A stretch of DNA of 64,000 bases. Source: Minisyncoccota bacterium. GTDB taxonomy: Bacteria > Patescibacteriota > Minisyncoccia > Phycocordibacterales > UBA9973. Positions within the stretch are counted from its first letter, which is position 1, and each line of letters starts with the position of its first letter. The notes under the pieces were generated by a model, which was given only the letters and a program-made list of their open reading frames with translations, made no database searches and was not told where the DNA came from. Below, piece after piece: positions 738-54,925 of this stretch. The DNA is taken from positions 152,626-216,625 of the forward strand of contig JAQULK010000001.1 in assembly GCA_028718635.1 (NCBI GenBank). The letters are read 5' to 3'. The position numbers and the translations under genes were made by a program.

Positions 738-1472
738 ATGAAAAACAAAATTAAAATTGCTTTAGTCGGTTTTGGGAAAATGGGAAAAGAAATTAATGCT
801 CTGTGTGAAGAGTCTGATGTTTTCGAAGTAGTTTCAATCAGTTTTAAAAATATAGATGATGCTTTGGATGTGGAGGGTATAGCTAAAGCAGATATCGCAA
901 TTGATTTTACATCAAAAGATGTAGTGATAAAAAACATAGAACAAGTCGCGAAGCTTGGAAAGAATTTAGTGATAGGCACTACTGGATGGTATGGTGACAT
1001 CGAAACAGTTAAAAAAATAGTTGATAAATATCAAATAGGTTTGATATACGGAGCAAATTTTTCAATCGGAGCTAATATTTTTTTTAAAATGGTAGCTTCC
1101 GCTTCTTCTCTTTTTGCCAAATTTCCTGAATATGATGTATATGGATTTGAAATTCATCATAAAATGAAAGCAGATAGCCCTTCTGGCACTGCTTTGAAAA
1201 TCGCTGGTAAAATTTTAGAAAATTTCCCAGCAAAAAAATCAATTCAAGTGGAAAAATTAGACAGAGAAATTGACCCGAGCGAGCTTCATTTTGCTTCAGT
1301 CCGCGGGGGCAGAAATCCCGGTTTCCATGAAGTTGTGTTTGATAGTAATGCTGACGGTATAACTCTTTCTCATCAAGCTTATGGAAGAGTTGGTTTTGCC
1401 AAAGGAGCATTGCTGGCAGCGGAGTTTATAAAGAGTAAAAAAGGATTTTATTCTTTTGAAGATATATTATAA
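738..1472 (+). CDS. dapB: 4-hydroxy-tetrahydrodipicolinate reductase
   Basis: N-terminal Rossmann motif KIALVGFGKMG and the DapB signature EIHHKMKADSPSGTA. Confidence 0.9.
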   Translation: MKNKIKIALVGFGKMGKEINALCEESDVFEVVSISFKNIDDALDVEGIAKADIAIDFTSKDVVIKNIEQVAKLGKNLVIGTTGWYGDIETVKKIVDKYQIGLIYGANFSIGANIFFKMVASASSLFAKFPEYDVYGFEIHHKMKADSPSGTALKIAGKILENFPAKKSIQVEKLDREIDPSELHFASVRGGRNPGFHEVVFDSNADGITLSHQAYGRVGFAKGALLAAEFIKSKKGFYSFEDIL

Positions 1473-1488
1473 ATAATTTTTTAAAAAT

Positions 1489-2418
1489 ATGAAAAACGTA
1501 AAATTTTTTGGTTCTATCCCCGCAATAGTTACGCCATTTAAAAAAAATGGAGAATTGGACTTACCTGCTTTAGAAAAAATGGTTGCTTATCAATTAGCTG
1601 GCGGAGTGGATGCGATAGTAGTGTGCGGCACAACAGGAGAGGCTTCAACTTTAAATGAGGAGGAGTATAGTATTGTTGTAAAAACAGTTGTTCAAAAGGT
1701 TTCCCTTGGCCATAGCCGTACGGGCGAGGCTAAAAAAGTTCCAGTTATCGCAGGGGCAGGCTCGAATGATACTAAAAAAGCAATCAAGCTTTCTATCTTA
1801 GCGAAAAAAGCAGGGGCTGATGCCTTGCTTCACGTAACTCCTTATTACAATAAACCAACTCCGAATGGCCTTGTGCTTCATTTTAAAGAAATTGCCAAAG
1901 CTGTAAACCTACCCATTATTATTTATAATGTTCCGGGAAGAACTGGATCAAATGTTTCTCCCGCAACCATTGTAAGAATTGCGAGAGAGGTACCAGAAGT
2001 GAAAGCAGTCAAAGAAGCTTCAGGTTCCTTCGGCCAAATGATGGAAATTATTAATGAAATAGAAAAAAATGGCCCAAAAGATTTTGTAGTGTTGTCTGGA
2101 GATGACTCTTTGGCTTTGCCGTGCATTGCTCTCGGCGGGAAAGGTTGTATTTCTGTTGTTTGCAATGAAGTTCCTAAATTATTTTCTAAAATGATTCATT
2201 TGGCTATCAAAGATAATTTAAAAGAGGCAAGGAAATTGCATTATCTTTTGTTAAAATTAATGAATATTAATTTTGTCGAATCTAATCCAATTCCAGTGAA
2301 AACAGCTTTGGCTCTGATGGGAAAGATTGAAGAAAGTTTTAGGCTACCGCTTACTCTTATTGAGGACAAGAACAGGGTTTTGATAGAGAAAACTTTAAAA
2401 GAATCAAAATTAATTTAA
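1489..2418 (+). CDS. dapA: 4-hydroxy-tetrahydrodipicolinate synthase
   Basis: IPAIVTPF...DAIVVCGTTGE, typical DapA/DHDPS family; directly follows dapB. Confidence 0.9.
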   Translation: MKNVKFFGSIPAIVTPFKKNGELDLPALEKMVAYQLAGGVDAIVVCGTTGEASTLNEEEYSIVVKTVVQKVSLGHSRTGEAKKVPVIAGAGSNDTKKAIKLSILAKKAGADALLHVTPYYNKPTPNGLVLHFKEIAKAVNLPIIIYNVPGRTGSNVSPATIVRIAREVPEVKAVKEASGSFGQMMEIINEIEKNGPKDFVVLSGDDSLALPCIALGGKGCISVVCNEVPKLFSKMIHLAIKDNLKEARKLHYLLLKLMNINFVESNPIPVKTALALMGKIEESFRLPLTLIEDKNRVLIEKTLKESKLI

Positions 2419-2428
2419 AATAATATTT

Positions 2429-3661
2429 ATGGCCACTATAAATAAAAATTTTGATAAATTACAGAGAGGATATTTGTTCGGTGAGATTGCAAGACGCACA
2501 AAAGAATTCATTGAAAAAAACCCAGGCGTCGAAGTAATGCGTCTCGGAGTTGGCGACACTACAGAACCATTGTCCCCGACAATTATTAAAGGATTGAAAA
2601 AAGGAGTTGAGAAACTCGCCAATGTTAAAACATATACAGGGTATCAAGACGCAGAAGGCAAAGAAGGGAATCAAGAATTATTGAACGCTTTAGTGAATTT
2701 TTATAAAGAAAAAAATATTAGTTTTAGCAAACAAGAAATTTTTGTTAATGATGGGGCCAAGCCAGATTTGGCCAATATTCAATCAATTTTTGGCTCAGAC
2801 AATGTTGTAGCGATTTCAGATCCTGTATATCCAGCATATTTAGATGCCACAGTTATTTCTGGCCGGACTGGTGAATATGTTGATGGAAAATATAAAGGTC
2901 TGGTGTATATGAAATGCAATGAACAAAATGGTTTTGTTCCTTTTCCTCCAAAGCAAAAAGTGGATATAATTTATCTTTGCAATCCAAACAATCCTACGGG
3001 TTCGGTGGCTACCAAAAAGCAATTAAAAGCTTTTGTTGATTATGCGATAAAAAACAAAGCGGTAATTATTTTTGATGCTGCCTACGCGGAATATATTTCT
3101 GATAAATCCTTGCCTAAAAGTATTTATGAAATAAAAGGAGCAAAAAAATGCGCCATTGAAATTAATAGTTTTTCAAAATGGTCAGGATTTACCGGTGTTC
3201 GTCTTGGTTGGACCGTTGTGCCGATGGACTTAGTTATTGAAAATACTTCCAAGGGAAAAGTTAATAGTTTGTGGAGCAGGCGCCAAGGAACTATGTTTAA
3301 CGGAGCTTCAAATATTGCTCAAGAAGGCGCCGTGGCGGCTTTATCTTCTCAAGGCAGAAAAGAAAGTAAAAAAATGGTTGCATATTATATGAATAATGCT
3401 TCAATAATAAAAAAGAATTTATTGAAACTTGGTTTAAAAGTTTTTGGCGGTCAAAATGCTCCATACCTTTGGATAAAAAATCCGAAGAATTTAAGCTCCT
3501 GGGAATTTTTCGACAAGCTTTTGAATGAAGCGCATGTTGTTGGAACCCCTGGTGTTGGTTTTGGAATGGAAGGAGAAGGCTATTTGCGATTGAGTTCCTA
3601 TGGACACACGAAGGATATCGAAAAAGCGGTGAAAAGTATTCGAGATAATTTTAAATTATAA
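2429..3661 (+). CDS. dapL: LL-diaminopimelate aminotransferase
   Basis: N-terminus INKNF..L..YLF.EI......NP...V..LGVGDTTEPL matches DapL; class I aminotransferase fold; lies between dapA and dapF. Confidence 0.8.
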   Translation: MATINKNFDKLQRGYLFGEIARRTKEFIEKNPGVEVMRLGVGDTTEPLSPTIIKGLKKGVEKLANVKTYTGYQDAEGKEGNQELLNALVNFYKEKNISFSKQEIFVNDGAKPDLANIQSIFGSDNVVAISDPVYPAYLDATVISGRTGEYVDGKYKGLVYMKCNEQNGFVPFPPKQKVDIIYLCNPNNPTGSVATKKQLKAFVDYAIKNKAVIIFDAAYAEYISDKSLPKSIYEIKGAKKCAIEINSFSKWSGFTGVRLGWTVVPMDLVIENTSKGKVNSLWSRRQGTMFNGASNIAQEGAVAALSSQGRKESKKMVAYYMNNASIIKKNLLKLGLKVFGGQNAPYLWIKNPKNLSSWEFFDKLLNEAHVVGTPGVGFGMEGEGYLRLSSYGHTKDIEKAVKSIRDNFKL

Positions 3662-3679
3662 TATACGTACATCATAAAT

Positions 3680-4501
3680 ATGATTGAATTTTACAAATAT
3701 CACGGCGCTGGGAATGATTTTATTATGATAGACAATATCAATAAAAATATTTCTATGCCAAAGGAGCAAATTGCTTTTTTGTGCGATCGGCACATGGGCA
3801 TAGGGGCGGATGGATTAATTTTCCTTGAGCTGTCCCCGAAGGCAGATTGTTTTATGAATTATTACAATGCGGATGGAAGCTTGGCAGAAATGTGCGGTAA
3901 TGGTATCAGGTGTACAGCCAAATTTTTCTTAGAATTAACAAAATCAAAAAAGAAAGAATTATTTATAGACACCAGGGCTGGAATAAAAAAAGTAACATGC
4001 AATAAAGACGGAAGTTTTTCTGTGAATATGGGAATTCCAGTTTTTTCTCATAAGGATTTCCCAAAAGAACCTCTTGTGTTGGAAAACATTAAATTTAATT
4101 TCGTTTCGATGGGTAATCCGCATGCTGTTGGTTTTATAAAAAATATTTCTGAAATTGATATATCTAAAATCGGCCCCAAAATAGAATCGGATTCTAATTT
4201 TCCAAATAAAATAAATGCAGAGTTCGTGGAAAAAGTTAATGATACTTATTTTAAAGTAAGAGTTTGGGAACGCGGATGTGGGGAGACTCTAGCTTGCGGC
4301 ACAGGGGCTTGTGCTGTGTTTGCCTGCGTTAGGCCTTGCCTAACGCAGGCAAAGAGTACAAAAGAAATAACATTAGAATTTCCTGGCGGGAATCTTTTTT
4401 TATCAGAGAATAAAGAAGGAGAAATTATTCTTCGCGGGGAAGCGCAATTTGTTTTTAAGGGAGAAATAAATAATATACAAGGCAAAACTTTGTATATTTA
4501 A
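3680..4501 (+). CDS. dapF: Diaminopimelate epimerase
   Basis: YHGAGNDFIMID N-terminal motif and the two catalytic Cys-containing segments (MCGNGIRC, ACGTGACA). Confidence 0.9.
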   Translation: MIEFYKYHGAGNDFIMIDNINKNISMPKEQIAFLCDRHMGIGADGLIFLELSPKADCFMNYYNADGSLAEMCGNGIRCTAKFFLELTKSKKKELFIDTRAGIKKVTCNKDGSFSVNMGIPVFSHKDFPKEPLVLENIKFNFVSMGNPHAVGFIKNISEIDISKIGPKIESDSNFPNKINAEFVEKVNDTYFKVRVWERGCGETLACGTGACAVFACVRPCLTQAKSTKEITLEFPGGNLFLSENKEGEIILRGEAQFVFKGEINNIQGKTLYI

Positions 4502-4505
4502 ATTT

Positions 4506-6206
4506 TTATTCCTCTTTTAGGTCTACTACGCTTTGCACTTCTTCAAAAGAAGTAATGCCATTTAACATTTTTACCAGACCATCTTGGCGCATTGAAAGTA
4601 TTCCTTGCGTGCTTGCCACTTTTTTGATTTCTCTTTCGCTTGGATTTTCAGGTATAATTTTTTCGATAGCCTCATCAGTTTTTATCGCTTCGAATATTCC
4701 TATCCTGCCCTTATATCCGATCATATTGCATTTGTCACAACCTACTGCTCCAAATAATTTTATTGGCGCATCGGGATTTATATTATAATTTGAAAGATTT
4801 TTACCTTCATTTTTTATACTGTCCATGACTAATTTTACGGTTTTCAATTCTTCTTCACTAGGTATTTTTTCTTTCTTGCAAAAAATACATAATTTGCGGA
4901 CCAATCGTTGAGCAATGGAAAGGGAGAGGGCGGAAACTAATATTTTAGGGTTTACTCCCAGGTCGATCAAACGGGGAATGACACCAGCTGCGTTGTTTGT
5001 GTGCAGAGTAGAGAAGACGATATGGCCAGTAAGCGATGATTGGACTGCCGTCTCAGCGGTTTCTTTATCACGAATTTCTCCAACCATCACTACATCTGGA
5101 TCTTGGCGAAGCGCTGAACGCAAGCCCTCCACGAAAGTATAACCTTTTTCATCATTGGTTTGGGTTTGGGTTACGCCTATTAAATGGTATTCTACTGGGT
5201 CTTCTATGGTTATTATTTTTATTTCTGGAGAATAAATTTTTTGAAGAAAGGCGTAAAGAGTGGTGGTTTTTCCAGAACCAGTCGGTCCTGTAACCAAGAT
5301 GAGTCCATTTGGTTTTATAATTTCCTTTTGGATTATAGAGAAAAGAAAAGGCTCTATTCCCAGCTCCTCGAGTTTTACTTGGATAGACTTCGGGTCCAAA
5401 ATACGCATTACGATTGATTCACCATAAGCGCCGGGAATAAGAGAAGTACGAATATTTATCTCATCTTTTTCTTCAATAATACTAAAACGCCCGTCTTGGG
5501 CTATTTTAGAAGTGAGTTTCATACCAGAAAGTAATTTAATACGAGAATTAAGTAGGCGATATACGTCTAATCCAAAAAAGTTTGTATCTTGTAATACTCC
5601 ATCTAGTCGAAGCCTTAGCCTGCTTCTTTCTTGTTCTGGTTCGATGTGAATATCAGAAGCTTTAATCGCGATCGCGCCAGCTAAAATTATTTCAAGTAAA
5701 TGAGAAATTTTATGAATTTTTTTTCCTTCTAATGCCTCGGCAACCATTTTTTGGATATCTTGCATTTTTTCTATTTTTTTTGATGTTTCCCTTAAAACTT
5801 CTCCAGAAATATCTATCCCACCAATTAGAGAGTTTTCTGCCATGGAAATTTCTTTATATCTATCCCAAACCTTGTTTATACTTGCAGTAGATACCATATA
5901 AAAAGTTGGTACTAGGTTTTTTCTTTCCAGATCGTCTTTTAACTTTTTTATAAGATCGTCGGAGGGGGAGTGTAGTGCTATAAAAATATTTTTCCCAAAA
6001 AGCTTAAAAGGCGCGATGTTTAATTCTCTCGAATCTTTTTCAGATATTGCGCGAAGTGCTTCGTTGTCTATTCCAATGCGGGCAAGATTAATATAAGGCA
6101 GGTTATATTTTGATTCTGCCAGTGTCGCCACCAATTGTTCTTCTTCTTGTTTATGCAATTCGTCTAATTGTTTATTTTGTTTTTCCTCATCAAAAACTGT
6201 TGCCAT
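4506..6206 (-). CDS. pilB: Type II/IV secretion system ATPase (PilB/GspE family)
   Basis: Walker A LVTGPTGSGKTTTL, N-terminal T2SSE_N-like region, and a C-terminal CxxC...CxxC zinc-binding cluster. Confidence 0.85.
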   Translation of the reverse strand: MATVFDEEKQNKQLDELHKQEEEQLVATLAESKYNLPYINLARIGIDNEALRAISEKDSRELNIAPFKLFGKNIFIALHSPSDDLIKKLKDDLERKNLVPTFYMVSTASINKVWDRYKEISMAENSLIGGIDISGEVLRETSKKIEKMQDIQKMVAEALEGKKIHKISHLLEIILAGAIAIKASDIHIEPEQERSRLRLRLDGVLQDTNFFGLDVYRLLNSRIKLLSGMKLTSKIAQDGRFSIIEEKDEINIRTSLIPGAYGESIVMRILDPKSIQVKLEELGIEPFLFSIIQKEIIKPNGLILVTGPTGSGKTTTLYAFLQKIYSPEIKIITIEDPVEYHLIGVTQTQTNDEKGYTFVEGLRSALRQDPDVVMVGEIRDKETAETAVQSSLTGHIVFSTLHTNNAAGVIPRLIDLGVNPKILVSALSLSIAQRLVRKLCIFCKKEKIPSEEELKTVKLVMDSIKNEGKNLSNYNINPDAPIKLFGAVGCDKCNMIGYKGRIGIFEAIKTDEAIEKIIPENPSEREIKKVASTQGILSMRQDGLVKMLNGITSFEEVQSVVDLKEE

Positions 6207-6275
6207 ATGTAAAGTATACTGTATTTTCTTTAGTTCCCCAAGTCATCCCTTTAGATAAATGTTATAATTTATATA

Positions 6276-8789
6276 ATGCTAAAACAGAAAACAGATAATA
6301 GTAAAACATTAGTATTACTAGATGCTCATGCGATAATCCACCGCGCTTATCATGCCTTGCCGGAATTTTTGTCTTCCAAAGGCGAGCCGACGGGGGCGCT
6401 TTATGGGCTTTCCACTATGCTGATGAAAATAATTACTGAGTTAAAGCCGGATTATATTGTGGCCTGTTATGACTTGCCCCAAAAAACTTTTAGGCACGAA
6501 GCGCATGATGGATATAAGGCAGGCCGAGCGAAAACCGAAGATGCCTTGATAATGCAATTAAAAAATTCTCGCCAGATTTTTGACGCTTTTGATATACCTA
6601 TTTATGATGCGCCTGGTTTCGAAGCGGATGATGTTTTGGGGACTATCGTGGAGAAATATAAAAAAGATAAAAATTTGAAAATCATTATTGCATCAGGAGA
6701 TATGGATACTATGCAATTGGTGGATGATAAAAAAGTGCAAGTTTACACTTTGAAAAAAGGCATCAATGATACTATTTTGTACGATGAAGATGCGGTTGTA
6801 AATCGATTTCATTTTAAACCAAAATTCCTTCCTGATTTTAAAGGATTGCGCGGCGACCCTTCAGATAATATCATCGGCATTAAAGGCGTCGGCGAAAAAA
6901 CTGCTGAAATCTTAATCTCAAAATTTGGAACCATTGAAGAAATTTATAAAAAAATTAAACAAGACGAAGAAGTTTTTAAAAAAGCAGGCATCAGTCCTAG
7001 GATGATTGAGTTGCTCAAAAATAACGAGGAAGAGGCTTTATTTTCAAAAATTCTAGCGACGATCAGAACTGACACGCCGATAGATTTTGTTTTGCCTGAA
7101 AAGACTTTTTGGGAAAAGGTGGATTTTAAAAGAATTGAACAAATTTTTTCAACTTTTGAATTTAGAAGCTTAGTAACGCGTTTAAAAAACTTTTTTGAGA
7201 ATAATGGGAATAAGAATAAACAAGAGCCCCCAGAGGATTATGCTCGCCGTCATTCGCACTCCGTCTTGGAAGGGCAAGATCCATCTGGTCGCAGCGAAGA
7301 TTCCTCTGAGCATAATCCTCTGGGGGCTGAACCCATAGATTCGCAAAAACTTCAAGAAGCCAGTATCGCCCTTTGGCTTGTCAATTCTGATATACCGAAT
7401 CCCAGCTTGGAAGATATCTTATTTTTTACCCATACGAACTCTTTTGAAAAAGCTTATGAACATATTTTCAAAAAACTGAAAGAAAATAATTTGGAGAAAG
7501 TGTATGAAGAAATAGAAAAACCCATTATCCCGATAGTGAAAAAAATGGAGGATTATGGGATTTTGATAGATAAAAAATATTTTGAAAAATTGTCTGCTGA
7601 ATACCATAAAGAATTGGATATTTTAACTAAAAAAATATATGCGCAAGCTGGTGTTGAATTTAATATAAATTCACCCAAACAATTGGGAGAAATACTTTTT
7701 GGTAAAATGGGCATAAAATCACCAGGTAAAAATGGAGCAAAAAAAAGTGCAAACGGCGGATTTTCTACTAAGGTTTCAATTTTAGAAGAACTGGAAGAAG
7801 AAAATCCGATTATAAAAGAAATATTATTTTATCGAGAATTGCAGAAATTGCTTTCTACATATATTGATGTCATTCCTAAAATGGTGGATGCTAACGGCCG
7901 TTTACACACAAAGTTTTTGCAAAATGGTACCACGACGGGAAGATTTTCTTCTCAGAATCCTAATTTGCAAAATTTACCTATCAAAACAGAACTTGGTAGA
8001 AGGATCCGAGGCGGTTTTATTGCGCCCAAAGGTTGCAAACTAGTTGCTTTTGACTATAGTCAGATCGAATTACGCATGGCTGCAATGCTTTCTGGAGATG
8101 AAAAAATGACCCAAGTTTTCCGAGATAAAAAAGATATTCATGCGGGAGTTGCTTCTTTTGTTTTTGGTGTGCCAATAGAAAAAGTAGATAGTGAAATGCG
8201 CCGAAAAGCAAAAGTGATAAATTTCGGAATTATTTATGGTATGGGGGTTTCTGCTCTGCGAAAGAATCTCGTCCGACCAAAATCGGACTCCGACACAAGG
8301 TCGGAGGTGGTAACTCGCGAGGAGGCGCAAAGATTTTATGACAATTACTTCAATCAATTTTCTGGCGTGCGGGATTATTTAGAAAAAGTAAAAAAGTTTG
8401 TGCGAGAAAACGCTTATACCGAAACTTTATTCGGCAGACGCAGGAATTTTCCAAACATAAACTCCAGAATTCCATTTTTGAAAAATATGGCGGAGCGTAC
8501 CGCGACCAATGCTCCGCTCCAGGGAACAGCCGCCGATATTATCAAATTAGCCATACGATATGCGGAAGAAGATTTGAAAAAAGCCGGCTTGTCAGAAAGC
8601 ACTCATCTGATACTTCAAATTCATGATGAACTCGTTTACGAAGTGGAAGAAAGTGTACTCTCAAAAGCTGAAAAAATAATAATGGGTGCGATGGAAGGGG
8701 TGCTTCAAAGATCATATATACATTATAAAACGGATATTCCGCTCGAAGCGCACTTTGGTTTTGGGGACAATCTCAGGGAAGTCAAATAG
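6276..8789 (+). CDS. polA: DNA polymerase I (5'-3' exonuclease plus polymerase domains; no recognisable 3'-5' exonuclease domain)
   Basis: N-terminal 5' nuclease domain (LLDAHAIIHRAYHAL..., GIKGVGEKTA), C-terminal family A polymerase motifs (DYSQIELR, KAKVINFGIIYGM, ILQIHDELVYE). Two GC-rich in-frame insertions noted. Confidence 0.9.
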   Translation: MLKQKTDNSKTLVLLDAHAIIHRAYHALPEFLSSKGEPTGALYGLSTMLMKIITELKPDYIVACYDLPQKTFRHEAHDGYKAGRAKTEDALIMQLKNSRQIFDAFDIPIYDAPGFEADDVLGTIVEKYKKDKNLKIIIASGDMDTMQLVDDKKVQVYTLKKGINDTILYDEDAVVNRFHFKPKFLPDFKGLRGDPSDNIIGIKGVGEKTAEILISKFGTIEEIYKKIKQDEEVFKKAGISPRMIELLKNNEEEALFSKILATIRTDTPIDFVLPEKTFWEKVDFKRIEQIFSTFEFRSLVTRLKNFFENNGNKNKQEPPEDYARRHSHSVLEGQDPSGRSEDSSEHNPLGAEPIDSQKLQEASIALWLVNSDIPNPSLEDILFFTHTNSFEKAYEHIFKKLKENNLEKVYEEIEKPIIPIVKKMEDYGILIDKKYFEKLSAEYHKELDILTKKIYAQAGVEFNINSPKQLGEILFGKMGIKSPGKNGAKKSANGGFSTKVSILEELEEENPIIKEILFYRELQKLLSTYIDVIPKMVDANGRLHTKFLQNGTTTGRFSSQNPNLQNLPIKTELGRRIRGGFIAPKGCKLVAFDYSQIELRMAAMLSGDEKMTQVFRDKKDIHAGVASFVFGVPIEKVDSEMRRKAKVINFGIIYGMGVSALRKNLVRPKSDSDTRSEVVTREEAQRFYDNYFNQFSGVRDYLEKVKKFVRENAYTETLFGRRRNFPNINSRIPFLKNMAERTATNAPLQGTAADIIKLAIRYAEEDLKKAGLSESTHLILQIHDELVYEVEESVLSKAEKIIMGAMEGVLQRSYIHYKTDIPLEAHFGFGDNLREVK
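7225..7328 (+). repeat. 104-bp element with perfect 21-bp terminal inverted repeats inserted in-frame in the polA inter-domain linker
   Basis: AGCCCCCAGAGGATTATGCTC (7225..7245) and its exact reverse complement GAGCATAATCCTCTGGGGGCT (7308..7328); GC-rich relative to its surroundings. Confidence 0.75.
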
Positions 8790-8811
8790 TGTTTTGTGCT
8801 ATACTTATGGC

Positions 8812-9291
8812 ATGGAAATAGAAAATAATAACAAAAACACGCAAATACAAAAGGAGGGCGTACACAAGCTTTTGGCGCATTCGCACGCGATGCAGTTTGT
8901 TTTGTTTATATTCGGTTTTTGCCTTGATTTGATATTCGGGGTTAAATTTTTTACCGGTCCTGCTTTTTTGTGGACAGGATTGCTATTTTTAGTTCTTGGC
9001 ACCATTTTGATATTTTGGGCGCAATATACTTCGCATCATTTAAATAGAGAAAACATCACTAAAGAATCTTTTAGTAAAGGGCCGTATCGTTATATTAAAA
9101 ATCCTACCAATTGGGGAATATTTTTTATGATAGTGGGTTTTGGGGTCATCACTAATTCTTTTTTTGTTATTTTGTTTGGGATAATTTCTTCTCTGATTGC
9201 AAAGTTTGTTTTTCTAAATAAAGAGGAGAAAATTTTGACGGCAAAATACGGTGATCCATATTTGGAATATAGAAAATCCGTCAGGTTTTGA
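8812..9291 (+). CDS. Isoprenylcysteine carboxyl methyltransferase (ICMT)/phospholipid methyltransferase family membrane protein
   Basis: Multi-TM protein with a GPYRYIKNPTNWG motif resembling the ICMT family G.Y...RHP.Y. Start moved to the in-frame ATG at 8812 (MEIENN) to avoid overlap with polA. Confidence 0.55.
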   Translation: MEIENNNKNTQIQKEGVHKLLAHSHAMQFVLFIFGFCLDLIFGVKFFTGPAFLWTGLLFLVLGTILIFWAQYTSHHLNRENITKESFSKGPYRYIKNPTNWGIFFMIVGFGVITNSFFVILFGIISSLIAKFVFLNKEEKILTAKYGDPYLEYRKSVRF

Positions 9292-38659: not shown

Positions 38660-39628
38660 CTATCTCAGAATCAAATTAAATAAATACCCAGTGAACATAA
38701 TTCCCACTCCCACAATTCCGGCAAATATAAAAATAAGTTTCGTTTTCATAACTTTCTTCAAGATCATAAATTCCGGCAAGGATAGGCCCGTAACAGACAT
38801 CATAAATGCCAGAGTTGTGCCGATGGACACTCCTTTTTCAGTCAAAGTAGACACAAGGGGAATAACTCCGGCTGCGTTTGAATATAAAGGAATGCCTATG
38901 AGTACAGCGAGCGGTACAGCGTACCATTTATCACTTCCTGCATATTGAGCCAAGAAATCAGCGGGAACATAACCGTGTATCCAAGCGCCAATCCCGATAC
39001 CTATTAAAATATAAACCCAAACTTTTCTTAAAATATCTAAAGTGTAATCTCTCGCGTAAAGGATTCTTTCTTTTTTGGTCATTATTGGCAGGCTTCCATT
39101 TTTATTTATTATGTTCTCGTAAACAAACGGTTCAACTAAATTTTCCACTTTCATTTTGCTAATAATAATTCCTGAAAGAATTGAAATAACGAGTCCGCTC
39201 ACTACATACATCAAGGCAATCTTCCAGCCGAACATTCCTAAAAGCAACACGAGAGCCACTTCGTTTATCATCGGGGAGGCTACTAAAAAAGAAAACGTTG
39301 TCCCGAGCGGAACTCCTGCTTGAATAAAACCCAAGAACAATGGAATAGCGGAACAAGAGCAAAAAGGCGTAATTATTCCCAAAAGCGAAGCAATGACATT
39401 TCCCATATATTTACTTTCGCGGGAAAGAATAGTCCTTATCTTTTCTGGCGGTAAATAAGAACGGATTATTGAAACGATAAAAATAATAACTGAAAGCAGG
39501 ATAATTATTTTTAAAGTGTCATAAATAAAAAAATTAACTGCGCTGGCTTTTAATGTGCTGGGAATTATTTTAAAAACAGAATATGTAAACCAATCAGCTA
39601 ATAATTGTATGGGATAAAATATATTCAT
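38660..39628 (-). CDS. Permease of the DUF318/ArsP family
   Basis: Multi-TM protein with the conserved TPFCSCSAIP motif characteristic of DUF318 (ArsP-like) permeases. Confidence 0.65.
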   Translation of the reverse strand: MNIFYPIQLLADWFTYSVFKIIPSTLKASAVNFFIYDTLKIIILLSVIIFIVSIIRSYLPPEKIRTILSRESKYMGNVIASLLGIITPFCSCSAIPLFLGFIQAGVPLGTTFSFLVASPMINEVALVLLLGMFGWKIALMYVVSGLVISILSGIIISKMKVENLVEPFVYENIINKNGSLPIMTKKERILYARDYTLDILRKVWVYILIGIGIGAWIHGYVPADFLAQYAGSDKWYAVPLAVLIGIPLYSNAAGVIPLVSTLTEKGVSIGTTLAFMMSVTGLSLPEFMILKKVMKTKLIFIFAGIVGVGIMFTGYLFNLILR

Positions 39629-39666
39629 AAATCTGTGAAACTTCTTTATTTAATTTAATTCGTTTG

Positions 39667-39751
39667 CGGAAACGGTGAGATTCGAACTCACGGTGCCTTG
39701 CGGCACTCTTGTTTTCAAGACAAGTGCGTTAGACCACTCCGCCACGTTTCC
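39667..39751 (-). tRNA. tRNA-Ser (anticodon UGA)
   Basis: Minus-strand cloverleaf with long variable arm; acceptor GGAAACG/CGTTTCC; anticodon loop CTTGAAA. Confidence 0.8.
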
Positions 39752-39762
39752 GTCTTTTATGA

Positions 39763-40275
39763 CTAGTTCAGTATAGCTATTTCAGGTTTTTTCTCAAGTT
39801 TATTTTTTAACCAGCTGTTTTTTAAAAAATGTTCTTCATAATGACAATTTGGGCAAATAAGCTCTAAATTTTTGAGTTCATTATTATTTCTATCTCTGTT
39901 TTTATGATGAACTTGCAATATTTCATATTTATCATAATCACATTTCTCGCATTTTTTACCTCTTACTTTTAGCAATCTAAGTTTCAAAAGTTGTTGAGAC
40001 TTTACTTTGCTTTTTGAAGGTCTTCCGATTTTATATTTTATGCCTGTTCTGTATTTATTTGCACAACTTCTGCTACAAGTTTTTTTATTTAGGCCAGTCA
40101 AAATTAATTTTCCACACATTGAGCAGGGGATTTCTTTTCTAAGAGAAATACCATAACAAGCAGGACTACAAAAGACTCGACCCTTATTTGCTGCTATCTC
40201 AGAAGGTCTTCTATAAATTTCTTTTTTACAAATACTGCAATTAGTATTTGGATTTCTTTTATATGCCTCAGCCAC
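39763..40275 (-). CDS. HNH endonuclease with N-terminal zinc-ribbon repeats
   Basis: CEKCDYDKYEILQVHHKNRDRNNNELKNLELICPNCH HNH motif; GTG start; 12 nt from tRNA-Ser. Confidence 0.8.
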   Translation of the reverse strand: MAEAYKRNPNTNCSICKKEIYRRPSEIAANKGRVFCSPACYGISLRKEIPCSMCGKLILTGLNKKTCSRSCANKYRTGIKYKIGRPSKSKVKSQQLLKLRLLKVRGKKCEKCDYDKYEILQVHHKNRDRNNNELKNLELICPNCHYEEHFLKNSWLKNKLEKKPEIAILN

Positions 40276-40341
40276 TCATCCAGTATACCACAAAATTTGC
40301 ATCAAAAAATACCCCAGTTGGCTGGGGTATTTTTTGATTAT

Positions 40342-51881: not shown

Positions 51882-53585
51882 ATGAATCAAGAAACTAAAT
51901 CCTGCCAAAATTGCCAAAAAGATTTCACGATAGAGCCAGAAGATTTTAATTTCTATGGAAAGATAAAAGTTCCATCGCCCTCTTGGTGTCCAGAATGCCG
52001 AATAGTACGTAGATTTGCTATTCACAATACTTGGAGTTTGTTTTGGCGAAATTGTGAAAAGTGTGGGATTAAAACTCTATCAACTTTTGAACCGGAAACA
52101 AAAATCACAACTTACTGCCAACCTTGCTGGTGGGGAGATTCTTGGGATGGCACAGAGTATGCTATGGACTACGATCCATCGCGTCCGTTTTTGGAACAAT
52201 TAAAAGAGTTGAGTAACAAAACGCCGTATGCTGCGCTTGAAACAGCTTATTTAACATTAAAAAATTCTGATTATTCAAATGATATTGCCTGGAGTAAAGA
52301 TTGTTATTTAGTTTTCTGGGCTGATTATTGTGATACAGTTTTTTACTCTTCTTTATTAAATGGTTTGAAATATAGTGCAGATTGTATTAGGGGATATGAA
52401 TCAGAATTATGTTATGAGTCTATAGGTTTTACGAAAAATTATAGAACTTTTTTTTCCGATGAATGTGATACCTGTGTGGATGTATGGTTTTCGCGTAATT
52501 GTTACGGTTGCACCAATTGCATCGGATGTGTGAACCTTCGTGGAGCTTCTAATTATATTTTTAATGTAAAATATTCTAAAGAAGAATATGCGGAAAAATT
52601 AAAAGAACTCAGTCTAGATTCTTGGAGTAAATTACGCGAGCTTGAAAAAAGAGCGCATGAATTTTGGCTGACTTTACCATATAGAGAATATGATGGCCAT
52701 TCTTTAAATTTAAATGTAACAGGAGAACATGTGTATACATCTAAAAATTCTAAAGAGGTATATGTTGTAAATGGTGCAGAAAATTGTAAATGGACTCAGT
52801 TTATAACAGTTCCTACTGCAAAAGATTGCATGGACTACTCTGGCTGGGGTAACAATTCTTCTCTTATTTATGAATCTGCCACTGTAGGAGAGAACGCGAA
52901 TTCAATTTATTTTTGTTATGGCTGTTGGCCGGATTCTCTTAATCTTCAATATTGTTCTTGGAATATATCCGGCAAAAATAATTTTGGCTGTTTTAATCTA
53001 AAGAGAAAGCAATATTGCATCCTAAATAAACAATATTCCAAAGAAGAATACGAGAAACTGAAAAATGAAATTATCGCAGATATGAAAATAAATCCGTATA
53101 TAGATAAACTGGGACGCAAATATTATTATGGAGAATTTTTTCCATCCGAGTTAAGTAAATTTTCTTATAATAAATCAAATGCCATACGTTTTTTCCCAAA
53201 GACAAAAGAGCAAGCGACCCGTGAAGGGTTTAACTGGAGTGATAGAGAAAATATCGTATATAATATTTCTAAACCAGCAAATTCTTTACCGGAAAAAATT
53301 GCGAATACAGGAGAAGATATCTTAAACGAAGTTATTGAATGTGAAAATTGTGGGAATGGATATAGGGTAGTTCAGGGTGAATATGATTTATTGCGTAAAA
53401 TGAATTTACCTATCCCGCATGAATGTCCCAAATGCCGTGAAATTAAACGATTTGCCAGAATGAATAAACCAAAGTTGCATCACCGAAATTGTATGAAATG
53501 CGGTGTAAATATTTATACCCCTTATTCTCCCGAAAGTCCTAATATTGTGTATTGCGTGAAGTGTTATCAGCAAGAATTTGCTTAA
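51882..53585 (+). CDS. Cys-rich protein of unknown function (paralogue 2)
   Basis: 567 aa. N-terminus CQNCQKDFTIEPEDFNFYGKIKVPSPSWCPECR, C-terminus MNLPIPHECPKCR, internal C.GC.NL...YCILNKQYSKEEYEKL repeats. Collinear homology to 16545..18293. Confidence 0.7.
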   Translation: MNQETKSCQNCQKDFTIEPEDFNFYGKIKVPSPSWCPECRIVRRFAIHNTWSLFWRNCEKCGIKTLSTFEPETKITTYCQPCWWGDSWDGTEYAMDYDPSRPFLEQLKELSNKTPYAALETAYLTLKNSDYSNDIAWSKDCYLVFWADYCDTVFYSSLLNGLKYSADCIRGYESELCYESIGFTKNYRTFFSDECDTCVDVWFSRNCYGCTNCIGCVNLRGASNYIFNVKYSKEEYAEKLKELSLDSWSKLRELEKRAHEFWLTLPYREYDGHSLNLNVTGEHVYTSKNSKEVYVVNGAENCKWTQFITVPTAKDCMDYSGWGNNSSLIYESATVGENANSIYFCYGCWPDSLNLQYCSWNISGKNNFGCFNLKRKQYCILNKQYSKEEYEKLKNEIIADMKINPYIDKLGRKYYYGEFFPSELSKFSYNKSNAIRFFPKTKEQATREGFNWSDRENIVYNISKPANSLPEKIANTGEDILNEVIECENCGNGYRVVQGEYDLLRKMNLPIPHECPKCREIKRFARMNKPKLHHRNCMKCGVNIYTPYSPESPNIVYCVKCYQQEFA

Positions 53586-54139: not shown

Positions 54140-54223
54140 GCCCAGGTGGCGAAACTGGTAGACGTACTACCTTGAGGTGGTAGCGCCCGCAAGGGCATGG
54201 GAGTTCAAATCTCCCCCTGGGCA
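54140..54223 (+). tRNA. tRNA-Leu (anticodon GAG)
   Basis: Acceptor GCCCAGG/CCTGGGC, long variable arm, anticodon loop TTGAGGT. Confidence 0.8.
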
Positions 54224-54327
54224 CAAAAGAAATATTAAAGAATCTCTTTAAGTGGCAAGAACACTTGTGAAAAATATCCACAAGTGTTCTTGTTTACCTT
54301 GTCTTTCTTTTTTGGTATAATGTACTT

Positions 54328-54849
54328 ATGCCAATAGTTAAATGCAAATTATGTTCAAAAGAATTTTATGGTAAACCATTTTTTCTAAAGAATGGTTGGG
54401 CTAAGTATTGTTCTACCGCATGTCAGTACAAAGCTAGACGAAGTGGAAAATTTTTACCCTGCGAGATTTGTGGAGAAAAGACCTATAAACAGTTAAAAAG
54501 ACTAAAAAAATCTAAAAGTGGTAAATTCTTTTGTAGCAAGTCTTGCCAAACAGTGTGGAGAAATCAAGAATTCATAGGAATTAAACATCATAATTGGAAA
54601 ACTGGGTTATCTGCTTACAGAAGCGTATTGGCGAGAAATAAGATTCCTAAATTTTGCAATTTATGTAGAACAAAAGATGAAAGAGTTCTTTCTACCCATC
54701 ATATTGATAAGAATAGAAACAATAATCATGTATCAAATCTTGCATGGCTTTGTAACAATTGTCATTTTTTAGTTCACCATTATAAAGATGAATCCTTGAA
54801 ATTTAAAAAAAATCTGTCAGTATATAGAATACGAGGTAAATCCTCATAA
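54328..54849 (+). CDS. HNH endonuclease with N-terminal zinc-ribbon repeats (paralogue of 39763..40275)
   Basis: CRTKDERVLSTHHIDKNRNNNHVSNLAWLCNNCH HNH motif; flanked by tRNA-Leu (105 nt upstream) and tRNA-His (4 nt downstream). Confidence 0.8.
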   Translation: MPIVKCKLCSKEFYGKPFFLKNGWAKYCSTACQYKARRSGKFLPCEICGEKTYKQLKRLKKSKSGKFFCSKSCQTVWRNQEFIGIKHHNWKTGLSAYRSVLARNKIPKFCNLCRTKDERVLSTHHIDKNRNNNHVSNLAWLCNNCHFLVHHYKDESLKFKKNLSVYRIRGKSS

Positions 54850-54852
54850 CAT

Positions 54853-54925
54853 GGTGCCCGTAGTTTAGTGGTAAAACTTCGGCTTGTGGAGCCGATATCG
54901 AGAGTTCAATTCTCTCCGGGCACCC
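54853..54925 (+). tRNA. tRNA-His (anticodon GUG) with extra 5' G(-1)
   Basis: G-1 plus acceptor GTGCCCG/CGGGCAC, anticodon loop TTGTGGA, T arm GAGTTCAATTCTC. Confidence 0.8.

Follow-up and report, generated by a model that had tools for sequence, protein, structure and literature searches.

Within a 64,000-nucleotide stretch of a Minisyncoccota bacterium (assembly GCA_028718635.1, contig JAQULK010000001.1, positions 152,626 to 216,625 of the forward strand; hereafter the window), two small genes that we call HNH1 and HNH2 each lie directly upstream of a transfer RNA (tRNA) gene, and it is probable from sequence comparison that they encode the nucleases of free-standing homing endonuclease cassettes of ~0.6–0.7 kilobases (kb), each specialised on one essential tRNA gene. 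Specifically, comparison with related loci shows a unit of promoter, apparently leaderless HNH gene and tRNA allele, which is sporadic at fixed sites and is exchanged across lineages. Judging from the alignments, this unit brings with it a tRNA allele that differs from the resident allele of the clade, and the HNH2 unit is associated with a resident tRNA-His gene that has been truncated just after the anticodon. The preliminary description of this DNA had offered two readings of the coupling between HNH gene and tRNA: homing-endonuclease-like selfish elements that target tRNA loci, or a tRNA-linked function such as processing or defence. The first is strongly supported by presence and absence at one site, a divergent HNH1 in a close relative, discordant tRNA alleles, halves of tRNA-His at the left border of the cassette, relatives in phage tRNA arrays and unrelated homing endonucleases at other tRNAs. 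Neither processing nor defence is favoured, since most closely related genomes lack the genes.

The features of the two loci are listed here in window coordinates, with lengths in nucleotides (nt) and with ORF standing for open reading frame.

39666–39751, minus strand: tRNA-Ser(UGA), the HNH1-linked allele (ARAGORN; Rfam tRNA, 64.5 bits).
39763–40275, minus strand: HNH1 ORF, 170 amino acids, GTG start; two treble-clef-like zinc fingers, then a predicted HNH nuclease domain.
39770–39797, minus strand: tRNA-Ser promoter TTGAGA-16-TATACT (promoter scan), within the HNH1 3′ end, where it encodes the tail ..LEKKPEIAILN.
40282–40290, minus strand: HNH1 extended −10 promoter TGgTATACT, 6 nt 5′ of the GTG start (from the sequence).
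40301–40338, no strand given: terminator hairpin of the upstream DUF5652 gene (terminator scan), the left border of the HNH1 insertion.
54140–54224, plus strand: tRNA-Leu(GAG) (ARAGORN), a host gene outside the cassette that frames the variable Leu-to-His interval.
54252–54269, plus strand: decayed 5′-half remnant of the former resident tRNA-His, GTGGCAAGAACACTTGTG, ending in the anticodon GTG (alignment A5).
54257–54291, plus strand: 13-base-pair hairpin AAGAACACTTGTG / CACAAGTGTTCTT, made of the remnant's anticodon region and the conserved left end of the cassette, CCACAAG.
54293–54321, plus strand: HNH2 promoter TTTACC-17-TGgTATAAT (promoter scan, 10/12 matches, extended −10).
54328–54849, plus strand: HNH2 ORF, 173 amino acids, ATG start, a paralogue of HNH1.
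54802–54830, plus strand: candidate tRNA-His promoter TTTAAA-17-TAGAAT in the HNH2 3′ end (promoter scan, 9/12; a weak consensus match).
54853–54925, plus strand: tRNA-His(GUG), the HNH2-linked allele, with a genome-encoded G−1 at 54853 (ARAGORN, 54854–54925; Rfam, 68.4 bits).

The arrangement first described for these genes stands: an HNH gene tight against tRNA-Ser, a homologous paralogue between tRNA-Leu and tRNA-His, and both genes 4 to 105 nt from tRNA genes on the same strand. The gap from the HNH1 stop codon to tRNA-Ser(UGA) is 11 nt (the start first given for this locus, 39667, takes in the tRNA gene itself), and the ORF and ARAGORN calls agree for HNH2, whose ATG lies 103 nt 3′ of tRNA-Leu and whose stop codon is 4 nt from tRNA-His and 3 nt from its G−1. 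The two proteins are 32% identical (BLASTP, E = 3e-18), and tblastn reveals no further paralogue of either in the window. Seven tRNAs are called there by ARAGORN; a same-strand ORF ends 11 nt or less upstream only for tRNA-Ser(UGA) and tRNA-His, and for the remaining five the nearest such end is at least 44 nt away.

The pairing of each gene with one tRNA type extends across its family. The comparison covered 80 genome loci with HNH1-family genes, each from a different species, and for HNH2 a further 80 loci taken from metagenomes (individual loci carry L numbers below). Allowing for overlap of ORF and tRNA, and counting HNH1 in loci with room downstream, tRNA-Ser(tga) lies directly downstream of the HNH1 orthologue in 78 of 78 loci and tRNA-His(gtg) directly downstream of the HNH2 orthologue in 79 of 84, four of the five exceptions being the upstream member of a tandem pair. 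Seen from the tRNAs of these 160 loci, 77 of the 80 tRNA-Ser(tga) genes and 73 of the 82 tRNA-His(gtg) genes have such an HNH gene upstream, which none of the ~330 tRNA genes of ~30 other anticodon types has. The preliminary description had stated that it would be refuted by a genome with numerous such HNH genes not enriched near tRNAs; these 160 loci display the opposite. The stop codon often falls inside the tRNA, and the HNH2 overlap is mostly exactly 15 nt, so that tRNA sequence supplies the codons for the C-terminus ..KFMEALV*.

Several variants of this arrangement occur. Tandem pairs of HNH2-family genes, ~50–57% identical to the HNH2 of the window, precede a single tRNA-His in L035 (18125–19115), L146 (1727–2729), L147 (4499–5501) and L148 (4–728). 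In L252 (19102–19593), L106 (10001–10474) and L107 (127–600), an intact tRNA-His is followed after ~100 nt by an HNH2-family gene that itself has no tRNA downstream. These downstream copies keep the usual hairpin and promoter, and L106 and L107 also have a 5′ fragment of tRNA-His just 5′ of the HNH2 promoter, which in L106 is between the intact tRNA-His and that promoter. HNH1-like genes 50–57% identical to HNH1 overlap tRNA-Ser(gga) in L161 (4314–5453) and in L162 and L163 (5001–5462), and this may be a third pairing of subfamily and tRNA; L161–L163 are 350–450 kb contigs filed as viral (G+C content 0.33–0.37) and may be genomes of the candidate phyla radiation (CPR) or huge phages.

Evidence for the sporadic presence of the genes comes from close relatives, which were chosen by a RuvX 80–90% identical to that of the window and whose contigs were then inspected. 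The neighbourhoods are conserved, with DUF5652, RuvX and PilM at HNH1 and with pseudouridine synthase, L19 and tRNA-Leu(gag) ... tRNA-His at HNH2. At a site with the same flanks (ArsP permease or another gene, tRNA-Ser, DUF5652, RuvX, PilM), HNH1 is present in the window and in L250 and is absent from at least seven relatives with a RuvX 80–89% identical. Specifically, tRNA-Ser(tga) stands without HNH1 in L086, L092, L137, L245, L246/L247, L252, L253, L254, L255 and the RuvX P0243 contig, and in the last of these the empty gap between ArsP permease and DUF5652 measures 190 nt, as against 714 nt in the window. In the sample that was not selected for the gene, the tRNA-Ser sites occupied by HNH1 are L106 and L250 only, and the HNH gene is missing from ~80% of all sites so sampled. 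Likewise, the interval from tRNA-Leu(gag) to tRNA-His ranges in relatives from 22 nt (empty) to 4.7 kb, and HNH2, where present, is always at its 3′ end. In L106, L252 and L253 these two tRNAs are 22–318 nt apart with no HNH2 between them (in L253 the spacing is 51 nt), and in L002, L016, L025, L026, L044, L045 and L079 they are 22–318 nt apart with nothing or other genes between them. The empty sites hold no pseudogene remnants of the HNH ORF, and the DUF5652 terminator hairpin is also found in the gap sequence at the empty sites L252 and L255. The comparison with HNH-free relatives that had been proposed as a way to detect an insertion footprint succeeds in part: the shared promoter and the gene order are clear, but the sequences (L086, L245, L246) are too diverged for a base-exact footprint.

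In addition, the history of HNH1 departs from that of its host. L250 and the window share 63% identity in HNH1 but 85% in RuvX, and HNH1 identity stays flat at ~64.5% whether the flanking host proteins are 20% or 60% identical. In correlations with the identity of RuvX, PilM, L19 or the linked tRNA, HNH identity is too noisy or saturated to distinguish vertical from horizontal inheritance, and it was the look-ups in close relatives that settled the question. Among the marks of a homing endonuclease gene, sporadic occurrence at the same locus in close relatives is thus observed, and discordance with the host is seen for HNH1, the signal for HNH2 being mixed; neither gene has an intron or intein location, as the ORFs are intergenic and the window contains no Rfam intron ribozyme.

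The linked tRNAs are discordant as well. Between the window and its close relative L252, tRNA-Leu(gag) is 100%, tRNA-Arg(gcg) 97%, tRNA-Val(tac) 96% and tRNA-Arg(tct) 96% identical, whereas the linked tRNA-Ser(tga) and tRNA-His(gtg) are 72% and 64% identical. With the more distant L086, which carries an HNH2 77% identical to that of the window, the values are 75% for tRNA-Leu(gag), 84% for tRNA-Val(tac), 74% for tRNA-Arg(tct), 76% for tRNA-Ser(tga) and 100% for tRNA-His(gtg). The tRNA-His of the window is 61% identical to that of L253, which, like L252, has no HNH2 upstream, and its tRNA-Ser(UGA) is 64–78% identical to those of close relatives whose other tRNAs are 96–100% identical. The empty sites L245, L252 and L255 share one identical tRNA-Ser allele, and the occupied sites of the window and L250 have different ones. 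Across all loci, genome pairs with control tRNAs 85–92% identical average 74% for tRNA-Ser(UGA) and 68% for tRNA-His, against means of 81–87% for control tRNAs in the same analysis. Furthermore, the D-stem strand GTGT is found in 26 of 75 linked tRNA-His alleles versus 26 of 30 that are free or remnant (p = 1e-6). Co-conversion of flanking markers, another mark of homing endonuclease genes, is therefore seen both in the linked tRNA alleles and in the upstream remnant described below.

Several tRNAs in these lineages are non-canonical, with a D-loop that lacks the conserved GG and a T-loop TGCAATT or GAGCATAA in place of TTCGAAT (for example L096 5056–5127, L035 16831–16914, L252 18936–19007, L002 1132–1203 and L016 1677–1748). 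In L096 a non-canonical HNH2-linked tRNA-His is accompanied by a canonical tRNA-His 3 kb away.

A trace of the resident gene is a truncated 5′ half of tRNA-His upstream of HNH2, which a tRNA-His profile detects in 26 of 83 loci versus 0 of 81 HNH1 control loci. This remnant consists of a leader ..ATG, the 5′ acceptor-stem strand, the D arm, the 5′ anticodon-stem strand and TTGTGG, and it is followed, in order, by 4–9 nt, a conserved CCACA(A/G), the promoter and the HNH2 ORF. The ATG that precedes tRNA-His occurs at empty sites as well and so does not belong to the cassette; CCACA[AG], 35–60 nt 5′ of the start codon, is found in 42 of 83 HNH2 loci versus 3 of 81 controls. The break falls at tRNA positions 34–45, mostly 37–38, at a fixed 47–58 nt upstream of the start codon. 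Remnants share 67.0% identity with the linked allele of their own locus versus 75.8% with intact alleles of genomes free of HNH2 (Wilcoxon p = 1.3e-5), and the L084 remnant reaches 92% with the intact tRNA-His of L252. In alignment A5, L081, L084 and L087 are collinear with the L252 tRNA-His from the leader through the anticodon and then diverge into the cassette. The remnant of the window, GTGGCAAGAACACTTGTG, pairs with CCACAAGTGTTCTT to form a hairpin; a plain terminator was considered for this structure and rejected, because the hairpin contains the anticodon region of the remnant. Upstream of HNH1, short 5′ fragments (positions 1–14 to 1–27) of a different tRNA-Ser allele are found in 5 of 81 loci.

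The expression signals are likewise shared across each family. TGnTAnnnT lies 5′ of the HNH1 start in 77 of 81 orthologous loci (6 nt away in 64 and 3 nt in 13), and the block TGTGGTATACTGGAtgaGTG is repeated upstream of HNH1 in most loci listed. The −10 element of HNH2 (54313–54321) ends 6 nt before the ATG; among its relatives, most of those listed have a −35/−10 pair at fixed spacing, and TGnTAnnnT was counted in 33 of 84. A −10 element that ends 6 nt before the start codon implies a leaderless mRNA for both HNH1 and HNH2. A TTGA..-spacer-TATA.. stretch is present 5′ of tRNA-Ser in the HNH1-free L245 and L246 and in the occupied L250 (A4, by eye), which suggests that the tail of HNH1 merely reads into pre-existing promoter and tRNA sequence. 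The proposal that the HNH genes are probably co-transcribed with their tRNAs holds to the extent that no terminator lies between HNH ORF and tRNA, so that read-through is possible; however, tRNA-Ser has its own promoter (39797–39770) within the HNH1 3′ end and thus does not depend on it.

Members of the HNH (His-Me finger) superfamily share a beta-beta-alpha-metal core with a catalytic His (HH), a structural Asn and a metal-binding His or Asn; in HNH1 and HNH2 zinc-binding CxxC pairs flank this core. By motif, profile and structural model, HNH1 and HNH2 belong to this superfamily and are predicted to be nucleases. The two N-terminal zinc repeats and the HNH motif noted in the preliminary description are invariant across the family alignments A1 and A2, in which two C-x2-C...C-x3-C zinc modules precede C-x2-C...HH...N...N...C-x2-C-H; no variation is seen in A1 at HNH1 residues C109, C112, H123, H124, N132, N136, C141, C144, H145 and H149, nor in A2 at the equivalent positions. 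The zinc modules give weak matches to zf-FCS and DUF2116. For the window proteins, Pfam HNH and HNH_3 score below gathering (21.5 and 19.8 bits), PHROG phrog_1271 ‘HNH endonuclease’ matches near full length (E = 6e-14 and 5e-15), and precomputed matches to PF01844 or PF13392 exist for many orthologues. A protein identical to HNH1 is held by NCBI as ‘HNH endonuclease signature motif containing protein [Candidatus Pacebacteria bacterium]’. In the structure predicted for HNH1 by AlphaFold2 (predicted local distance difference test score 73.5), residues 121–145 form a strand-strand-helix (beta-beta-alpha), and a Foldseek search of this model against the PDB returned weak, generic HNH and zinc-finger matches (for HNH domains, E of at least 0.17). 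Profile-search matches among PDB sequences proved to be heme motifs and were discarded as spurious. The searches yielded about 1,478 relatives for HNH1 and 459 for HNH2, with 57–88% identity among the matches listed, and all are Patescibacteria wherever named.

It is also worth considering relatives outside these chromosomes. Those in IMG/VR are 28–57% identical (most phage copies 28–45%), many are full length, and they sit nearly always in tRNA arrays: 86 of 106 HNH ORFs are in loci with at least three tRNAs, and in 66 of 106 a same-strand tRNA starts −60 to +150 nt from the stop codon, in many cases at 0–10 nt. The nearest phage relative has the same downstream tRNA type in 24 of 56 cases versus 4.6 ± 2.1 expected by chance; this nearest-neighbour test was used, single-linkage clustering having collapsed into one cluster. 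In the cultured-phage collection tblastn found no real (full-length) homologue, and hence no direct link to the T5 and T4 enzymes.

Nucleases of other kinds occupy comparable positions. ORFs of LAGLIDADG_3 type, ~226 amino acids long, end 1–2 nt before tRNA-Leu(gag) in 10 Parcubacterial loci (for example L002 3483–4163, minus strand, Pfam 29.9 bits, and L106 8747–9412, plus strand); the tRNA-Leu(gag) of the window is without such an ORF, the end of L19 being 44 nt upstream. In L136 (47–313, plus strand) and two other loci, tRNA-Arg has a 10-nt overlap with a GIY-YIG ORF (Pfam 46.5 bits), and a different HNH protein without zinc fingers lies between tRNA-Cys and tRNA-Leu(taa), 0 nt from the latter, in L003 (13956–14462, plus strand).

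In the same category of observation, a 74-amino-acid HNH-like ORF precedes tRNA-Arg(tct) in L061 (8003–8227, minus strand), and another family of ~226 amino acids is found 5′ of several tRNA types. A group I intron matches Rfam at 50.9 bits (gathering threshold 50) in a tRNA-rich Parcubacterial stretch (L104 18791–19006). On the 3′ side of tRNA-Ser(tga) in L253, positions 1412–9270 look like a separate tRNA-associated island, with a helix-turn-helix regulator, a Type ISP/MmeI-like restriction-modification gene, serine recombinase fragments and pieces of an ABC transporter. About 7.3 kb upstream of HNH1 in L040 there is a tRNA with anticodon tta (‘tRNA-Stop’ in ARAGORN), possibly a suppressor-like tRNA.

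A mechanism can be proposed that would accommodate these patterns. Each cassette comprises a promoter 6–7 nt before the start codon, an ORF for a zinc-finger-HNH protein and, directly downstream, an intact tRNA allele, tRNA-Ser(UGA) for HNH1 and tRNA-His(GUG) for HNH2, with the tail of the ORF entering the promoter of the tRNA or the tRNA itself. The predicted nuclease, acting as a site-specific DNA endonuclease, would cut the resident tRNA gene, in tRNA-His near positions 34–45, and repair or recombination with cassette-bearing DNA would swap the 3′ part of that gene for the cassette and its allele, which would itself resist cleavage. With the resident gene destroyed, the cell would depend on the tRNA of the cassette, and this dependence would account for both the invariant linkage and the tight packing of ORF and tRNA. 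Phages with tRNA arrays are plausible reservoirs or vectors of the cassettes.

Not all observations sit comfortably with homing cassettes. HNH2 identity tracks host relatedness (Spearman 0.60, with a floor of ~56%), and within the clade of the window (L081–L087) HNH2 looks vertically inherited. In L106, L107 and L252, HNH2 comes after an intact tRNA-His with none downstream. Remnants at HNH1 are rare, at 5 of 81 loci, and no position in tRNA-Ser discriminates occupied from empty sites; the same allele types occur with and without HNH1, so that occupancy cannot be read from the allele alone. Some 43% of positions in HNH1 vary hardly or not at all, which exceeds the conservation typical of selfish homing endonucleases. 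Finally, all of the comparison data are metagenome assemblies.

The strong purifying selection on a sporadic gene is common among defence genes, and one might therefore ask whether HNH1 and HNH2 are domesticated defence nucleases that, for example, cut the tRNA genes of invading phages and are kept beside a resistant self allele. The residence of their relatives in phage tRNA arrays would fit, as would weak PADLOC matches to the HNH parts of ZorE and of ‘HEase’ models (E = 5e-8 to 1e-3). Those matches, however, cover the generic HNH motif only, and neither Zorya or other partner genes nor a defence island lies nearby, so that PADLOC finds no complete system. By itself, defence explains neither the truncated resident tRNA-His nor the one-to-one pairing with a tRNA, and it is compatible with a selfish origin rather than an alternative to it. 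We consider it unlikely.

A vertically inherited cellular gene that acts on the neighbouring tRNA (in processing, expression control or quality control) would account for the invariant pairing, for the overlap of the ORF with the tRNA or its promoter, for the correlation of HNH2 identity with host relatedness, and for proteins that remain ~65% (HNH1) and ~57% (HNH2) identical across lineages whose flanking proteins are 25–45% identical. The empty sites speak against such a gene: it is absent from ~80% of unselected sites, including genomes with a RuvX 80–89% identical, and intact tRNA-Ser(UGA) and tRNA-His exist without it, whereas a housekeeping enzyme should be present wherever its substrate tRNA is. 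Divergent HNH1 variants in close relatives, the scars of a destroyed resident tRNA-His at the cassette border, and relatives scattered in phage arrays beside many tRNA types add to this, and we judge the cellular gene very unlikely. Hardly credible, in our view, is that the genes are cargo of another mobile element, either an integrase-type tRNA island, for which anticodon loops are classical targets, or an IscB/OMEGA-like nuclease guided by the conserved structured RNA, the tRNA, that always flanks the ORF: the variable unit is ~0.6 kb and contains no integrase, transposase or RuvC domain, and the tRNA piece left over is a 5′ half on the upstream side, the reverse of what integrases leave when they restore a tRNA. 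IscB/OMEGA nucleases have a RuvC domain split by the HNH domain and use an omega RNA; HNH2 matches the NCBIfam IscB model weakly (24.4 bits, cut-off 175) and in the HNH region only, the 170-amino-acid zinc-finger protein has no RuvC domain, and Rfam reveals no RNA besides tRNAs in the window.

If the genes are homing endonuclease cassettes as proposed, one may go further, and more tentatively, and view them as natural ‘cleave-and-rescue’ drives on essential RNA genes, an idea that we hold to be possible rather than probable. The HNH protein would cut the resident tRNA-His (near the anticodon) or tRNA-Ser(UGA), and the diverged, resistant allele would make the host dependent on it; repeated rounds would drive tRNA turnover and the appearance of non-canonical D-loop and T-loop variants in Parcubacteria; and the same family would build and reshuffle phage tRNA arrays, with phages shuttling cassettes between hosts.

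It is informative to set the cassettes beside known systems. Integrase islands and prophages resemble them in inserting within a tRNA gene (here in the anticodon loop), in carrying tRNA sequence that keeps the gene functional and in leaving a partial copy at the border. In contrast, the HNH cassettes have no integrase, span ~0.6 kb and leave the 5′ half upstream, and they appear to bring a whole new tRNA, with an acceptor stem unlike that of the remnant, where integrase islands restore the 3′ part. Free-standing homing endonucleases at tRNA genes are known from phages, and the chromosomal cleave-and-replace form suggested by the present comparison appears to be new; the literature searches turned up no account of such cassettes in CPR chromosomes. 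T4 SegB is a free-standing GIY-YIG homing endonuclease in the tRNA cluster of phage T4 that cleaves tRNA genes and drives the inheritance of its tRNA region (PMC2330249). It shares with the cassettes a free-standing nuclease gene among tRNA genes (PMC2330249), the cutting of tRNA genes in relatives without the nuclease, and neighbouring tRNAs that are co-inherited and replace recipient markers. It differs in being a GIY-YIG rather than an HNH enzyme and in belonging to a phage rather than a cellular chromosome; moreover, the T-loop motif that SegB is described as recognising is generic and occurs in many tRNA genes, whereas a Parcubacterial family pairs with one tRNA species only, and the truncated resident tRNA found at HNH2 loci has no counterpart mentioned in the passages of the SegB report considered here (PMC2330249).

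Among coding sequences in the tRNA arrays of mycobacteria and phages, HNH genes are the most frequent (PMC5966550, PMC6409571). They belong to the same superfamily (phrog_1271 matches near full length) and lie between tRNA genes, and the IMG/VR copies often end within ~10 nt of a tRNA and tend to share its type; they have been described as array-associated only, with no defined cassette, target or replacement mechanism (PMC5966550, PMC6409571). The synthetic Cleave-and-Rescue system (ClvR) follows the same logic, in that a nuclease destroys an essential gene, a linked recoded copy is resistant, and carriers survive (PMC6442612). ClvR is engineered, relies on Cas9 with guide RNAs, works in a sexual diploid and places the rescue at a separate locus (PMC6442612), whereas the HNH cassettes would be natural, protein-guided and bacterial, with the rescue copy at the target locus and with cleavage and resistance as predicted properties.

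Should the proposal be correct, homing endonucleases can invade an essential, intron-free cellular RNA gene by means of a replacement copy rather than a self-splicing intron or an intein. It would also give a concrete reason why particular tRNA genes of ultra-small CPR bacteria evolve fast and discordantly, and one nuclease family would connect chromosomal tRNA loci with phage tRNA arrays. The thousands of small (~165 amino acids) natural nucleases, each of which may recognise a defined tRNA gene sequence, could also find use as site-specific enzymes and as a natural model of toxin-antidote gene drives.

Some features of the neighbourhood are of separate interest. The tRNA-Leu(gag) at 54140–54224, called by ARAGORN, is below the Rfam tRNA gathering threshold, and Rfam accordingly lists six of the seven window tRNAs. 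Upstream of it, at 51882–53585, the window encodes a 567-amino-acid cysteine-rich protein with many CxxC pairs and no Pfam match on record, which is kept beside L19 in relatives (L252 16349–18052, L253 16192–17916). An ArsP-type permease gene (38660–39628) lies downstream of tRNA-Ser(UGA) in the window, and its homologue in L002 (162–1127), 79% identical, is found 4 nt downstream of tRNA-His(GUG), which suggests rearrangement at these tRNA genes.

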